A stretch of 64,000 bases of DNA from Clostridia bacterium (GTDB taxonomy: Bacteria > Bacillota > Clostridia > TANB77 > CAG-508), in NCBI GenBank assembly GCA_017517685.1, contig JAFWYK010000010.1:66499-130498 (forward strand), in the 5' to 3' direction. The notes beneath the pieces were generated by a model, which was not told the origin of the DNA, did not search any database, and saw only the letters and a list, made by a program, of their open reading frames with translations. A program made the position numbers and the translations under genes. This document shows positions 27,747 through 32,115 of this stretch, one piece after another; positions within the stretch are counted from its first letter, which is position 1; every line of letters starts with the position of its first letter.

Positions 27747-27776
27747 AGAGACTGTAATCAAACAGTCTCTTTTTTG
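27747..27776 (+). terminator. Rho-independent terminator
   Basis: agagactgt-aatcaa-acagtctct hairpin followed by T5. Confidence 0.8.
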
Positions 27777-27880
27777 TTACCAAAAAGATATGTTGTAATT
27801 TACATAATATCTTGAAAAGAATATTTAAATACGGTATAATAAAAGAGTAATGTTATATTTTGTAAAAGAAGGAAAATATT

Positions 27881-28510
27881 ATGAAAAAAGAAGAAATAAC
27901 AAGTAAAGAATTAAAACAATGCATTTGTTTAAAAACAGGAAAATTAAATTTTTCTGAAGTAACAGATGAAGATATTGAAAATATCACTGAAATTGATTTA
28001 AGAGGCGTTAAATTTAATGGAGAACCAACAGATGTAATTCTATCTGAATTAGATGTTTTTCCAAATTTAAATGGCCTTATGATTTCACATTTTGACTTAA
28101 AAGCAGAAGATATCGAATCAATCGCAAAACATGATAAATTAAAAGTTATTCAATTCTCATCTTGTGATTTTGAAAATATTACAACTATTGATTTAAATAA
28201 TCTTGATATATTAGTATTTGTAGGTTGTACAGATATGACAAAATTAAAAATGCCAAAATCAAGAGTATTAAGAGTAATTGGTAGTGAATTGAATTTTGAT
28301 GGTGTTGATCCAAGTGTTGTTGAAAAAATGTTAATTCAAAATTCATTAGTAAATAATTTCACAGGTCTAGATTCAAATGATAATTTAGTTGAAGTAAATT
28401 TTGATGGAACTACAATTCTTGATAAAGATGGTAAAGAAGTAAAAGATGTAAAAGTAATGCCACATGTATCATTTAGTAGAGAAGATGAGTTCTTACCAGA
28501 AGATAGATAG
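27881..28510 (+). CDS. leucine-rich-repeat-like protein, unknown function
   Basis: 209 aa with repeated LxxLxL-type units (ITEIDLRGVKF, FPNLNGLMISHFDL, LKVIQFSSCDF, LDILVFVGCTDM, LRVIGSELNF). No signal peptide seen. Confidence 0.55.
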   Translation: MKKEEITSKELKQCICLKTGKLNFSEVTDEDIENITEIDLRGVKFNGEPTDVILSELDVFPNLNGLMISHFDLKAEDIESIAKHDKLKVIQFSSCDFENITTIDLNNLDILVFVGCTDMTKLKMPKSRVLRVIGSELNFDGVDPSVVEKMLIQNSLVNNFTGLDSNDNLVEVNFDGTTILDKDGKEVKDVKVMPHVSFSREDEFLPEDR

Positions 28511-28527
28511 AATAGGGGTTTTTTATA

Positions 28528-31500
28528 ATGAATGTTAATTTAAAAAGTAAAGAATTAATTAGTTTATTTCAAAATAATGGTATCTTAACTCCAAGTATTG
28601 CTCAAAAAAGAGCAAATAATATTGAGATTAATTTAACTGGTCCAGTATCAAATGAATTAATAGAAGATATCAAACAAATTGCATATGAATTTCCTAACTT
28701 GTTAAGACATATAACTGTAAAGAATAATACAGATAAACCAATTGACATGCAAAAATTAGTTGATGCAATTGGTGAAGAAAAACGTTTTAATTCAAGATTT
28801 AAAAAGTTTATATCTTTTAAAGTCGAATCTACTCATAGAGAAGATTTTAATTTAGATTATGGAAATTTAACTCATGTAGATGGAATTGCACTTACAAATA
28901 CAGATCCAAATGCAATTGCTAGTTTAAATCTAGCTACATATAGACTTCCACAAGGAACTAAAGATTTAACTTTAGATGGATTTGATTTATCAACAATAGA
29001 TTTAAATTTAGCAAAAATCAAATCACTAACATTATCAGGAAGTAGAAATGTTGGATTTAGCAGGATGATGGGAAAAGATGGCTTAACATCATTATATGCT
29101 ATGAGAAGACAACTTGATAGTGAAGTAAGAGATATTATTGATTTTGCAAATAATTCAAGAAATTTACATACATTTGGACTATCTGATGTTAATCTTCAAG
29201 GAATGAAAATATTAGAAGTATTAAGAAATCCTGGATTAGCAGCAATTGTATTAAATAGAGTTGGATTAAATAGTTTAGATGGTTTAGAATTCTGGAATGG
29301 AAAATTAGATAGATTAAGCGTAATAAATAATCAATTAGGAATTTCAGATTTAGAAAGACTAAATGAATTTAGAAGAGTTAATAATGAGACATATGTTTCT
29401 TTAGGTGGAAATTCTGGAATAGTAACACATTTTAGAAGTTTATCAACAGAAGACTTTTCTCCACAAACAACAAGAAGCATTGCAGATTCTTTTACAAATG
29501 AAGTAAAAGATATGCCTAATAGAACAAATACATTAACATATTTGGCTGGAAATAAATATATGCCTTATTCAATCTATGATGCAGAAAGAGTAAGAGGACA
29601 AGCTAAAATAACATTAAATCCAATGTTTATTGAGAGAATGTCAGATTTAGAATCATTTGATTTTAATCAACCGCATTTAGCTGGTGGAACATTATTATTA
29701 ACAGTAGAACAAGTTGAAAGAATGATTGCTTTAAATAAACAAATTCCAATGAACATTAGTATTGGAATAAAAAATGCATCAGAACTTTCAAGTGAGAAAT
29801 TACAAGAAATATATCAAAAAGTTAAAATTACAGATATAAGAATGATTGGATCTGATATTAGTGATAATCAAAGAGATCCATATACACCAATAGAATATGT
29901 TAGAGCAAGAGAGTTACTAGATGAAGTTGTAAGTGGAATTGATCCAAAAGAATCTGATATTGATAAGTTTACAACTATTTATACAAGACTTGCCAAAACT
30001 ATGACTTATGATTATAGTGCTATAAAATCTGATACTGCAGCACAAATGAGACATTCAAGTAAAGTTTCAAACACATCAAGAAACTTAATTGGTGGATTAT
30101 CATCAGGACAATGTGTATGTGCAGGTTATGCTGAAACATTAAGAAATGCATTAGCATTAGTCGGAATTAGAGCAAGATATATTAGAGGCAAATGTTATGA
30201 TGATCCTGATTATACATCAAGACATGCATGGACTCATGTAGAACTAGCTAATTCAAAAGGTGAGAAAAAATGGTATCTTGCAGACTTAACTTGGGATTCA
30301 CAAGAAGCAACACGTGCTGGAGATAGAGCTAATTATAGATATATGTTAATTGGTGAACCTGATTTTAGAAAAGATCACCAAGTTACATATACAAAATATA
30401 TGCATCAATCAAGTGTAGAAGCTTTTGATAGAGATGAATTAAGAAGAGCTATGGATAAAGCAAATGGCAGATTCTTAAATCCTAGAGTTTCACTTAAAAA
30501 GAGAATGGAAGAACGTGAAAAAGCAAGAAAACTTGAAGAACAAAAAAGAAAAGAAGCTGAAGAGAAGAAAAGACAAGAAGAATTAAAGAAAAAATCTGAA
30601 GAAGAGAGAAAGAAAGAAGAAGAAAAGAGAAAAGCTTTACTTGAAAAAGTATCTTATGAAGGACTTGCAGATTTAAAAGGTAAAAGAGATAAAATAAAAA
30701 CTGAACTTGATAGTATATATGCTTTATTAAGACAAGTTAAAGATCTTCCACATGAAAAACAAGTTGATTATAGAAATAGAGCTCAAAAAATAGAAGAAGA
30801 AATTACAAAAATGAATTCTGATATTGAGACATATAAAGATCAATTATACACAAAAGAGATGAAGGCTCAAAATGAAGATAAAGCAAGACTTGAAGAATTA
30901 ATGAAACAAAAAGAAGAGCAAGAAAAAGCAGCAGCTAAGAAAGAAACTAAAAAACAAGAACTTCCAAAACCAAGACCAGTTGTTGAAGTTAATAAAGATT
31001 TCTTGGATGCAGCAAAAAATGCAAGAATTGCAATGCTTGAATCAATGATAGCCAATAGAGAAGCAGTACTTATTGGATATGGCGATAAAGCTCATCAAAA
31101 TAGAGAAATAGAACTTGCTGAATGGAAAAAAGAACTATCTGATCTTAAAACTGGAAAAATCTATGATTCATTAGTTGAAACAGCTAAGAAAAATGAGATA
31201 GAAGATTTAAAACAAAGAATTGCAAATCGTGAAGCTATGATAGCTGGACGTGGTGATTCATTAAATCCAATAAGATTTACAGAACTTGAAGAATGGAAGA
31301 AACGTTTAGGTTTATTAGAAGGTAACGAAACAGTTCAAGGTGAAACTGTTAAAGAAGAACCAAAACCAGAAGCACCAGTTATAGATCCAATGTTATTACA
31401 AGAAATTGCAGGGTTAGAAAAACGTATCAAAGAAAGAGAAGCAAGAATGGCAACTCTTACAGAAAGAGAAGTTACTGTATTTGAAAGATTTGAATTAAAA

Positions 31501-32010
31501 TCTGAAGAAGAAATTCAAAAAGCTGCAAAAAAATCTGAAAAAGAAAATCAAAAAGAGATTAAAGAAAGAGAAAAAGAAACTAAGATATACGCTCAAACAA
31601 ACATGACAAGTGCTTTAAAATTAAAAACAAAAGCTGATTTAATAGCTAATGAAAGAAAAATTAGAGTTGAACATGCAGAAGCTAGTATTCTTAGATTTTC
31701 AAATCGATTATTTAATAGAAGCGATGATTCACTTCCAGATTGGATGCTTTCAGTAGTAGATTTTGGAGTAGGAGCTACTATGACAGTTAGAAATGCATTT
31801 GATAGATGGATTCATGGTGAAGATAAATACGATGCAGAGTTAGAAGCTGTTAAGAATTCTCAAGTAGTCGTAACAAAAGAAGGGCCAAGAATGGAAGGTA
31901 GATCAAATCAATATAGAGTTGAACCAGCTGAAATTTCAGCTAACAAACCAAAAGTAAAAAATAGAAGAGTGAGACCAACAAATAATGATAAAGATCTAGA
32001 AGATAGATAA
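28528..32010 (+). CDS. LRR / transglutaminase-like (Cys-His-Asp) / long K,E-rich coiled-coil protein
   Basis: 1160 aa. N-terminal LRR-like units. GQCVCAGYAETLRNALALVGIRARYIRG...RHAWTHVEL...WYLADLTWD (nt 30106-30297) fits the transglutaminase-like core C..[FY]A...GI.AR..G...HAW..V...W..D. The C-terminal ~500 aa are charged helix with internal repeats. Confidence 0.75.
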   Translation: MNVNLKSKELISLFQNNGILTPSIAQKRANNIEINLTGPVSNELIEDIKQIAYEFPNLLRHITVKNNTDKPIDMQKLVDAIGEEKRFNSRFKKFISFKVESTHREDFNLDYGNLTHVDGIALTNTDPNAIASLNLATYRLPQGTKDLTLDGFDLSTIDLNLAKIKSLTLSGSRNVGFSRMMGKDGLTSLYAMRRQLDSEVRDIIDFANNSRNLHTFGLSDVNLQGMKILEVLRNPGLAAIVLNRVGLNSLDGLEFWNGKLDRLSVINNQLGISDLERLNEFRRVNNETYVSLGGNSGIVTHFRSLSTEDFSPQTTRSIADSFTNEVKDMPNRTNTLTYLAGNKYMPYSIYDAERVRGQAKITLNPMFIERMSDLESFDFNQPHLAGGTLLLTVEQVERMIALNKQIPMNISIGIKNASELSSEKLQEIYQKVKITDIRMIGSDISDNQRDPYTPIEYVRARELLDEVVSGIDPKESDIDKFTTIYTRLAKTMTYDYSAIKSDTAAQMRHSSKVSNTSRNLIGGLSSGQCVCAGYAETLRNALALVGIRARYIRGKCYDDPDYTSRHAWTHVELANSKGEKKWYLADLTWDSQEATRAGDRANYRYMLIGEPDFRKDHQVTYTKYMHQSSVEAFDRDELRRAMDKANGRFLNPRVSLKKRMEEREKARKLEEQKRKEAEEKKRQEELKKKSEEERKKEEEKRKALLEKVSYEGLADLKGKRDKIKTELDSIYALLRQVKDLPHEKQVDYRNRAQKIEEEITKMNSDIETYKDQLYTKEMKAQNEDKARLEELMKQKEEQEKAAAKKETKKQELPKPRPVVEVNKDFLDAAKNARIAMLESMIANREAVLIGYGDKAHQNREIELAEWKKELSDLKTGKIYDSLVETAKKNEIEDLKQRIANREAMIAGRGDSLNPIRFTELEEWKKRLGLLEGNETVQGETVKEEPKPEAPVIDPMLLQEIAGLEKRIKEREARMATLTEREVTVFERFELKSEEEIQKAAKKSEKENQKEIKEREKETKIYAQTNMTSALKLKTKADLIANERKIRVEHAEASILRFSNRLFNRSDDSLPDWMLSVVDFGVGATMTVRNAFDRWIHGEDKYDAELEAVKNSQVVVTKEGPRMEGRSNQYRVEPAEISANKPKVKNRRVRPTNNDKDLEDR

Positions 32011-32017
32011 AAAATTA

Positions 32018-32049
32018 AGCACTTAAATTAAATTTTAAGTGCTTTTTTC
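32018..32049 (+). terminator. Rho-independent terminator
   Basis: agcacttaaa-loop-tttaagtgct hairpin followed by T6. Confidence 0.8.
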
Positions 32050-32115
32050 TTGCTAAAAATAGATTATAATGATAGAATAAAACAAACATATTTTTGCTAT
32101 ATTAGGAGAGAAAAT

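Follow-up and report, generated by a model that had tools for sequence, protein, structure and literature searches.

A gene pair encoding leucine-rich repeat and transglutaminase-fold proteins downstream of dnaJ in a clostridial genome

RESULTS

Organization of the locus

The window analyzed here is a 64,000-nucleotide (nt) stretch of a Clostridia bacterium genome (GenBank assembly GCA_017517685.1, contig JAFWYK010000010.1, positions 66,499 to 130,498), and this work concerns two adjacent open reading frames (ORFs) found in it, ORF209 (27881..28510, 209 amino acids [aa]) and ORF1160 (28528..32010, 1160 aa). Both genes, and all the features of the window described below, lie on the + strand. 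The source genome (G000) has a size of 1.63 Mb in 12 contigs and is 89.7% complete. The gene order at the locus is hrcA-grpE-dnaK-dnaJ, the ORF209-ORF1160 pair, recD2, and spoIIAA-spoIIAB-sigF. A previous reading of this DNA, made from its letters without database searches (hereafter, the sequence-only reading), had described two same-strand genes 17 nt apart right after the dnaJ terminator, and these coordinates were verified.

The hrcA-grpE-dnaK-dnaJ operon is predicted to end at an intrinsic terminator (27747..27770; 9-bp stem with four GC pairs, followed by a T-run), which would thus mark the upstream boundary of the transcription unit of the pair. The putative promoter of the pair (27799..27840) comprises the upstream element TTTACATAA (27799-27807), a −35 box TTGAAA (27812-27817), and, after a 17-nt spacer, a −10 box TATAAT (27835-27840). 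The two boxes match 11 of the 12 sigma-A consensus positions, the best score within the 4.6-kb region, and the layout ATTTACATAA-n3-5-TTGAaA-17-TATAAT is kept at 6-7 of eight orthologous loci, even where protein identity is 32-37%. A GGGG Shine-Dalgarno-like element lies ahead of the ORF1160 ATG, and a second putative intrinsic terminator (32017..32044; 11-bp stem, then a T-run) closes the unit. Terminator-like sites are more frequent than in shuffled sequences (five found vs 0.9 expected). On the basis of the flanking terminators, the sigma-A-type promoter, and the 17-nt gap between the genes, ORF209 and ORF1160 are predicted to form a two-gene operon of their own, with constitutive transcription.

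Domain architecture of ORF209 and ORF1160

ORF209 is an acidic protein (isoelectric point 4.5) with an N-terminal helical cap and the C-terminus ...EFLPEDR. Its AlphaFold2 (AF2) model is of high quality (predicted local distance difference test [pLDDT] 93, predicted template modeling score [pTM] 0.88), and the top PDB fold matches are the internalins InlC2, InlH, and InlB (E ~2e-4, template modeling score 0.45-0.59). By modeled fold, ORF209 is thus an internalin-type capped leucine-rich repeat (LRR) protein, as the sequence-only reading had suggested. No Pfam LRR model matches ORF209 or ORF1160 at E <= 1, and "LRR-like" is therefore the correct wording. A total of 44 clusters of ORF209 homologues were found. 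The comparison of ORF209 with the LRR region of ORF1160 by hhalign (E 3e-4, probability 40%) gives a weak hint that the former could be a duplicate of the latter.

ORF1160 is a large basic protein, and its residues 1-659 were modeled with AF2 (pLDDT 89.4, pTM 0.86). Residues 1-295 (28528..29412) would form an N-terminal cap and an irregular LRR solenoid, on the basis of the alternation of strands and helices in the model. The profile of the ORF1160 family matches InlH (7e-6) and a designed LRR protein (5e-6) at positions ~134-350, and the match to the LRR of SspH2 is weak (E 0.009). For the N-terminus, Foldseek retrieved nucleotide-binding LRR receptor (NLR), internalin, and Legionella LRR proteins. 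The LRR-like N-terminal units noticed from the sequence are supported by both the model and the InlH match. Residues 296-453 (29413..29886) are predicted to fold into a helical plus small alpha/beta "middle" domain (pLDDT mostly >90); its portion at residues ~385-470 is common to 78/124 broader homologues and to a paralogue described below. Residues 454-640 (29887..30447) correspond to a transglutaminase (TGase)-fold, papain-like domain, as indicated by Pfam, the catalytic triad, and Foldseek.

The core is followed by a long helical region, as anticipated by the description of a K/E-rich helix with internal repeats. Indeed, residues 641-1010 (30448..31557) are K/E/R-rich and coiled-coil-like, with 40-54% charged residues per 100-residue block; this region was found in most homologues of the full unit, with a ratio of nonsynonymous to synonymous substitution rates (dN/dS) of 0.27-0.48. 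It contains three ~57-aa repeats (residues ~823-1000, 30994..31527) of the pattern …A[KR]…I…L…IANREA.I.G.GD……ELEEWKK.L…. Residues 1011-1110 (31558..31857) form a C-terminal region conserved in the 1150-1230-aa homologues and in P0010 (dN/dS 0.14-0.54), which includes the amphipathic segment …LPDWMLSVVDFGVGATMTVRNAFDRW…, of too low hydrophobicity for a transmembrane (TM) helix. Finally, residues 1111-1160 (31858..32007) consist of a basic low-complexity linker and an acidic-Arg terminus (…NNDKDLEDR), and this final tail is disordered. The dN/dS of these final 50 residues is near neutral (0.57-1.06), yet the EDR terminus (31999-32007) is kept while the linker drifts.

No signal peptide or TM segment was found by hydropathy in either protein, the maximum of the 19-residue Kyte-Doolittle mean being 0.98 for ORF209 and 1.17 for ORF1160, which confirms the initial impression that no obvious one is present. 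An N-terminal hydrophobic segment was found in 0/149 homologues.

The transglutaminase-fold core

Residues 472-586 of ORF1160 match the Pfam model PF01841 (Transglut_core) with 29.1 bits (cut-off 23, E 1.3e-6). The putative catalytic triad consists of Cys531 (30118-30120), His566 (30223-30225), and Asp586 (30283-30285). The three residues fall inside the interval (nt 30106-30297) in which the sequence-only reading had placed a TGase-like Cys-His-Asp core, and they are invariant across 14 homologues, with identity down to 34%. In the broader set, the C-x-[GAS]-[FYH] and H[AS][WFY] motifs are retained in 108/124 homologues.

The fold search on the predicted structures recovered an LRR fold together with a TGase-type core. 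The Foldseek matches to the core include 9CRN (TglA, 4e-6), 4XZ7 (TGase), 3ISR (a Cytophaga putative cysteine protease), LapG, PeiP, and TG3; the second-best fold match is the axonemal central-pair chain 7N6G_6E, aligned over the full length of the model (658 columns). Score, triad, and modeled fold all agree in assigning ORF1160 to the Transglut_core superfamily.

Conservation of the pair and genomic contexts

We inspected ~10 related loci: L022 and L023/L002 (Candidatus Scatovivens metagenome-assembled genomes), L067-L070 (metagenome contigs), and L018/L019, L020, L021, L024, and L025. At every one of them, an ORF209 homologue of 209-230 aa lies directly upstream of the large LRR-TGase gene. 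The loci fall into at least three contexts, namely downstream of dnaJ (with recD2 next where the contig extends), between tuf and plsX, and between an Hsp33-like (hslO-like) and an rsmA-like gene; in all cases the neighbors are housekeeping genes. Candidatus Scatovivens is a genus named from chicken-gut metagenomes (PMC8035907), which NCBI classifies under Clostridiaceae incertae sedis.

Presence and absence refer here to the genomes searched. Detectable ORF209 relatives are limited to four GTDB species representatives and four Joint Genome Institute metagenome contigs. The whole LRR-TGase unit is represented by ~25 clusters at 50% identity (HMMER search on 1.84 billion cluster representatives), and residues ~385-620 of ORF1160 alone are shared by ~300 (E <= 1e-10) to 1,447 (E <= 1e-3) representatives. 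A full-length 1160-type orthologue is present in one of 24 congeners, and fused or longer variants in two others. The gene pair is thus real, rare, and found together at all the inspected loci. The two outcomes that the sequence-only reading had listed as speaking against it, namely homologues lacking the Cys/His/Asp residues and no co-occurrence beyond this genome, are contradicted by the invariant triad and by these loci.

Evolution of the pair and of the dnaJ-downstream slot

In three congeners (G006, G002, and G004), dnaJ is directly followed by recD2-spoIIAA-spoIIAB, and the slot is empty. These comparisons identify the pair as lineage-specific cargo of a variable slot, a possibility raised by the sequence-only reading, which had mentioned that prmA-rsmE-type genes often follow dnaJ in Firmicutes; an rsmE-like gene is indeed found there in more distant families of the order. 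The slot downstream of dnaJ was also inspected by eye in other congeners (loci L055-L062). It holds a TetR-like regulator, an MMPL-type transporter, and a large secreted protein in G001, and small acidic ORFs in G011, G014, and G009, the last with a RelB/DinJ-like antitoxin as well; pheS is also among the cargo. In G016 (L002/L023), an IS3-like transposase fragment adjoins the pair where recD2 is expected.

The pair is not recent cargo: on the metagenome contig L069 it occupies this slot too, and there dnaJ is 81% and recD2 76% identical to those of the window, compared with only 33-35% for ORF209 and ORF1160. Among Scatovivens species, the dN/dS of the pair is 0.20-0.53 vs 0.04-0.09 for the flanking genes, and the synonymous rate (dS) is the same for the pair and the flanks (~0.5-0.7), which argues for vertical inheritance rather than island turnover. 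Within ORF1160, constraint on the TGase core is in every comparison among the strongest (dN/dS 0.16-0.35), joined by that on the mid or the C-terminal region depending on the comparison, and the LRR is among the faster-evolving globular regions (0.24-0.51). Judging from these rates, both genes are functional, vertically inherited, and fast-evolving under purifying selection.

A fused partner module and a paralogue

A second protein of G000, C5:540-3734 (locus L027), is 1064 aa long, belongs to no detectable family, and has a coiled coil and an acidic-Arg tail. Its repeats are 43% identical over 107 aa to the IANREA…ELEEWKK repeats of ORF1160, and its residues 388-1038 are ~40% identical to residues ~930-1590 of the homologues P0014 and P0015, of 1.6 thousand residues each. 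A C5-type module of ~650 residues is fused behind the LRR-TGase unit in P0014, P0015, L024, and L025, and the two are contiguous in G002:C24. In G016, the ORF1160-type and C5-type proteins are encoded by separate genes. Searches of Pfam, NCBIfam, and PDB sequences found no relatives of the C5-type module. The gene fusion in other lineages suggests that ORF1160 and the C5 protein could work together.

The fused forms of 1.5-1.67 thousand residues (P0014, P0015, and P0067-P0079) have an extra N-terminal domain (residues 1 to ~260), which resembles a TGase-like core that has degenerated and lost the nucleophile Cys (…DSAGLASIFYEAMKRNGIPCKYI…AWNEIQI…YYPLDV…).

G000 also encodes a paralogue, C3:17303-19081 (592 aa), with a middle domain, a TGase core, and, as judged by eye, an LRR-like N-terminus. 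It is 38-39% identical to ORF1160 residues ~414-590 and ends in …EESDKEV, without the tail; a 152-aa ORF starts 3 nt beyond it. This paralogue stands for a broader family of ~580 aa that extends through the genus and the order; most congeners, and further families of the order as well, have proteins of similar size (~545-650 aa).

A shared acidic-Arg C-terminus

ORF209 (…EFLPEDR), ORF1160 (…DKDLEDR), and most of their homologues end with an acidic run and a terminal Arg. In ORF209, the E-D-R motif (28499..28507) appears as PEDR, PEER, or LEDR in close homologues, and is replaced by DDRM, DRDRE, YDRMKE, or EELR in distant ones. This shared tail and the fused partner module described above had both escaped the sequence-only reading.

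We evaluated how frequent this ending is in G000, on a crude longest-ORF set. Among 1308 ORFs of at least 120 aa, 12 end in [DE][DEG]R vs 1.3-2.9 expected (4-9-fold, Poisson P ~5e-5), and looser criteria give ~20-25 ORFs with an acidic tail ending in Arg. At least three acidic residues in the five preceding positions are found in 18% of the Arg-ending ORFs vs 5% of the Lys-ending ones. A terminal Arg is present in 18/22 complete homologues of the full unit and in 43/124 core-only homologues, vs 84/1308 (6.4%) G000 ORFs (P ~1e-17), the background coming from one genome and the homologues from many.

The tail-bearing genes are single and scattered among housekeeping genes, and their proteins are signal-less; they include mTERF-like and HAD-like proteins, and 8 of 10 other tail proteins tested have no Pfam family. 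Besides the pair, the strict [DE][DEG]R enders of G000 are C1:139975-140616, C1:183878-185737, C4:176247-176930, C5:540-3734, C7:17339-17839, C9:100782-101828, C9:105093-106112, C10:339904-341448(-), C12:22812-24065(-), and C12:97377-99704(-). The looser members include C3:903-2561, C6:50989-53193, C8:45755-46300(-), C10:196110-196931, and C10:241383-242771.

An unrelated 417-aa family shows the same behavior: its last 30 residues are unalignable across species and the terminus is kept (HEDR, HDER, EDGR, RDER, RDER, and DEER, with DLLR in the most distant member, 33% identical). The signal is at the protein level. A cause at the DNA or RNA level was rejected, since the codons vary synonymously (GGA CGT, GGT AGA, GAC GGA AGA) and the sequences past the stop codons are unrelated.

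One tail protein, C9:105093-106112 (339 aa, after mutS, tail …IPGFEDR), has no Pfam match and shows by eye a TGase-like C…H…D pattern (…FICRQIAEMYAELL…HAYTVIKL…FIADLVYD…). A second one, of 348 aa and mTERF-like (…EYFDGR), lies 3.3 kb upstream of it. A link between the ORF209-ORF1160 pair and a nearby 1139-aa HExxH module was considered and rejected, since the proteins of that module lack the acidic-Arg tail and a look-up with the ORF209 sequence gave no match.

Comparison with known systems

The sequence-only reading had named no characterized bacterial system of this kind, and the searches agree, with no NCBIfam equivalog and no PADLOC or PHROGs match. More precisely, PADLOC-DB 2.0 gave zero matches for ORF209, ORF1160, the C5 partner, and the fused homologue, and PHROGs zero matches for the pair, the fused form, and the C5 partner. 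The combination of LRR, TGase core, and coiled coil does have a precedent in eukaryotes, where it is found in DRC7/CCDC135 (see below).

The closest solved structure is TglA of Streptococcus pyogenes (9CRN), the best Foldseek match (4e-6, ~14% identity to ORF1160) and the best PDB sequence-profile match (1.4e-5 to 2.6e-8). The two proteins share a VC[AN]GYA…HAW core, in which Cys531 aligns with the cysteine of the TglA VCNGYA motif; unlike ORF1160, TglA is 379 aa long and has no LRR, coiled coil, or partner. No published function was found for S. pyogenes TglA/9CRN in the literature, where papers on "TglA" deal with an unrelated 3-thiaglutamate peptide. Among NCBIfam profiles, the best for the core and the next helix is NF045980 (MAG6410 transglutaminase-related lipoprotein, Mycoplasma), with 54.3 bits for ORF1160, 70 for P0014, and 41 for the C3 paralogue, all far below the cut-off of 450; the alignment covers ~200 residues only, and ORF1160 has no lipobox.

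The BTLCP/LapG and PeiP/PeiW proteins share with ORF1160 the papain-like fold and the Cys-His-Asp triad, and LapG is only a distant fold match (E 5.6e-3). LapG is exported and calcium-dependent. LapG and PeiP, a pseudomurein endoisopeptidase, act extracytoplasmically on adhesins or the cell wall, whereas ORF1160 has no export signal and carries an LRR, a coiled coil, and a tail. Neither an export signal nor an adhesin or LapD-like neighbor was found at the locus, which speaks against membership in the BTLCP/LapG family. The internalins have a capped LRR fold like that of ORF209 and of the ORF1160 N-terminus, and SspH2/IpaH combine LRR and catalytic Cys with a logic similar to that of ORF1160. 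Internalins have signal peptides and wall anchors, and IpaH/SspH2 are type III substrates with a NEL ubiquitin-ligase domain. No internalin-type signal peptide or surface anchoring was recognized in the pair, as no N-terminal hydrophobic segment is present.

Two eukaryotic systems offer parallels. DRC7/CCDC135 (nexin-dynein regulatory complex subunit 7) is related to other ciliary TGL-domain proteins; it has an LRR, a transglutaminase-like (TGL) peptidase domain, and a coiled coil, and glutamylated, i.e., acidic, protein tails are the predicted ligands of the TGL domain (PMC3623635, PMC10318531). The likeness to ORF1160 is one of architecture in a large scaffold; DRC7 is eukaryotic and axonemal, and the similarity may reflect convergent domain assembly. 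The vasohibin-SVBP tubulin carboxypeptidase, in which a TGase-like peptidase with a catalytic Cys requires a small partner protein, takes the final residue off an acidic C-terminal tail (PMC4866520, PMC6642083). It differs in having a Cys-His-Ser triad rather than Cys-His-Asp and, as partner, a short helix (SVBP) rather than an LRR protein. Vasohibin (PF14822) gave no Pfam match to ORF1160 and is not among the 50 fold matches listed for it, so that the resemblance would be an analogy of mechanism, a TGase-fold enzyme with a small partner in a proteome rich in acidic-X-COOH tails, without signal of homology.

DISCUSSION

Proposed role of the pair

The likeliest of the readings considered is an intracellular, LRR-guided cysteine enzyme carried on a coiled-coil scaffold, with the C5 protein as partner and docking tails, a composite reading to which we assign a probability of roughly 45%. 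According to it, ORF209 and ORF1160 would remain inside the cell, where their LRR surfaces would choose a protein partner or substrate, and the Cys531 enzyme would cut, deamidate, or cross-link the chosen target. The coiled coil and the repeats would assemble ORF1160 with C5:540-3734, and ORF209 would act as an adaptor or regulator of the enzyme. Lastly, the acidic-Arg C-terminus would be a shared short linear docking signal, linking the tail proteins into one lineage-specific network.

Several points weigh against this reading. The sole basis for an intracellular location is the absence of known export signals, in a genome 89.7% complete. The interactions between ORF209 and ORF1160 and between ORF1160 and the C5 protein are deduced from gene order, fusion, and shared repeats. 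TGase-fold domains can be inert binding modules or differ in chemistry. The tail is retained in congeners without ORF1160 (G005, G006, and G017), which suggests that its reader is not ORF1160 alone. Finally, a role in conflict or outside the cell would also be in keeping with internalin-like LRRs and rapid evolution.

Alternative explanations

The first alternative is export by a signal-peptide-independent route, with the tail as sorting signal and the proteins acting on host, mucus, phage, or neighbor-cell targets. It would account for the nearness of the LRR fold to Listeria internalins, for the fast evolution relative to the flanks, including that of the LRR (dN/dS 0.24-0.51), for one C-terminal tag common to many signal-less proteins, and for the identity of the nearest TGase profile relatives, the Mycoplasma lipoprotein family NF045980 and S. 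pyogenes TglA. However, Sec, Tat, and lipoprotein signals were found in 0/149 homologues, an acidic-Arg C-terminus is used by no known Gram-positive pathway, the mTERF-like and HAD-like tail proteins look cytoplasmic, and a long charged coiled coil with a basic tail is atypical for secreted enzymes. Type VII secretion was considered as the route and rejected: no WXG100 protein was found in the 89.7%-complete G000 genome, and its single FtsK/SpoIIIE protein (837 aa) is not an EssC-like ATPase. In light of this, we regard export as unlikely.

The parallels with DRC7 and vasohibin-SVBP lead to a further reading, in which the tail would be an undescribed C-terminal signal of small-genome gut Clostridia, read or edited at the terminal Arg by the LRR/TGase proteins, with ORF209 as small obligatory partner. 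In this reading, the tail would mark a set of signal-less and mostly family-less proteins, the LRR or TGL domain would bind it, and the Cys enzyme would trim or ligate at the terminal Arg, a bacterial counterpart of what the two eukaryotic systems do on acidic tubulin tails. The evidence for this consists of co-occurrence, and we consider it a long shot.

The pair could also be an anti-phage or conflict system, in which the LRRs would sense an invader and activate the cysteine protease, with ORF209 as co-sensor or inhibitor. Repeat sensors joined to proteases are a frequent architecture in bacterial immunity, and the raised dN/dS, the variable chromosomal slot, and the patchy distribution (a full-length orthologue in 1/24 congeners) would be in line with it. 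On the other hand, there are zero PADLOC matches and no NTPase switch domain, the neighbors are housekeeping genes everywhere, and the alternative cargo of the slot is not defense-like. Moreover, the predicted promoter is strong and constitutive, the dS equal to that of the flanks points to vertical descent, and the tail and coiled-coil repeats also occur on proteins that are not defense-like. A defense role thus appears very unlikely. A phage, plasmid, or viral origin was rejected, as there are no PHROGs matches and no relatives in IMG/VR, phages and plasmids gave generic TGase-core matches only, and a viral fold library gave giant-virus LRRs only.

The sequence-only reading had also mentioned a spore-associated role, which in its full form would make these mother-cell proteins assembling on the forespore, with the TGase cross-linking the spore coat and the tail targeting proteins to it. 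Coat proteins are typically lineage-specific, hydrophilic, and signal-less, and their genes are single and dispersed; these properties are also those of the tail-bearing genes, spoIIAA-spoIIAB-sigF lie close downstream of the pair, beyond recD2, and Bacillus subtilis Tgl, which cross-links the spore coat, is a precedent. The role is weakened, and in our view scarcely probable, since the near-consensus promoter is of the sigma-A type rather than sigma-E or sigma-K and is conserved at distant loci, the pair does not neighbor spoIIA in its other contexts, Pfam and NCBIfam show no similarity to Tgl or known coat families, and no link to TGase-like clostridial coat proteins was found in the literature.

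Significance of the pair

TGase-fold cysteine enzymes and LRR proteins are well known, and an operon composed of a free LRR protein and a giant LRR-TGase-coiled-coil protein is undescribed. The pair would offer an entry point to the unannotated proteins of abundant uncultured gut Clostridia, which are linked to each other by the repeat module, the fusion with the 1064-residue protein, and the acidic-Arg tail. Should the tail prove to be a genuine signal for docking, sorting, or editing, it would be of a C-terminal kind new to Firmicutes. If the pair is just a lineage-specific structural protein, the result would be a well-documented new architecture of modest interest.

Additional observations on the promoter element and recD2

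The upstream element of the pair's promoter recurs elsewhere. (A)TTTACATAA is found 2-5 nt ahead of a TTGAnn −35 box at ~8 unrelated G000 promoters (examples of TTTACATAA promoter sites are C1:186356, C3:9519, C6:24599, and C10:153235), at C10:135203, upstream of a 611-aa GC-rich orphan gene, the 9-mer immediately precedes TGnTATAAT, and at the ORF209-ORF1160 locus its conservation extends across genera. The element resembles an UP-like (upstream) or extended −35 feature typical of the lineage and of its promoters in general. A role as regulon marker of the tail genes was rejected: the 9-mer is unenriched (89 found vs 116 expected), precedes ~8 unrelated genes, and is often itself a TTTACA −35 box.

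Downstream of the pair, the mechanically called recD2 ORF begins at TTG 32050 (764 aa), and its orthologues are 742 aa long and start with MELKGH. From this comparison, the recD2 start is probably TTG 32116, behind an AGGAG at 32104-32108, and the stretch 32050-32078 reads as a recD2 promoter-like site (TTGCTA-17-TAGAAT with a TG extension).

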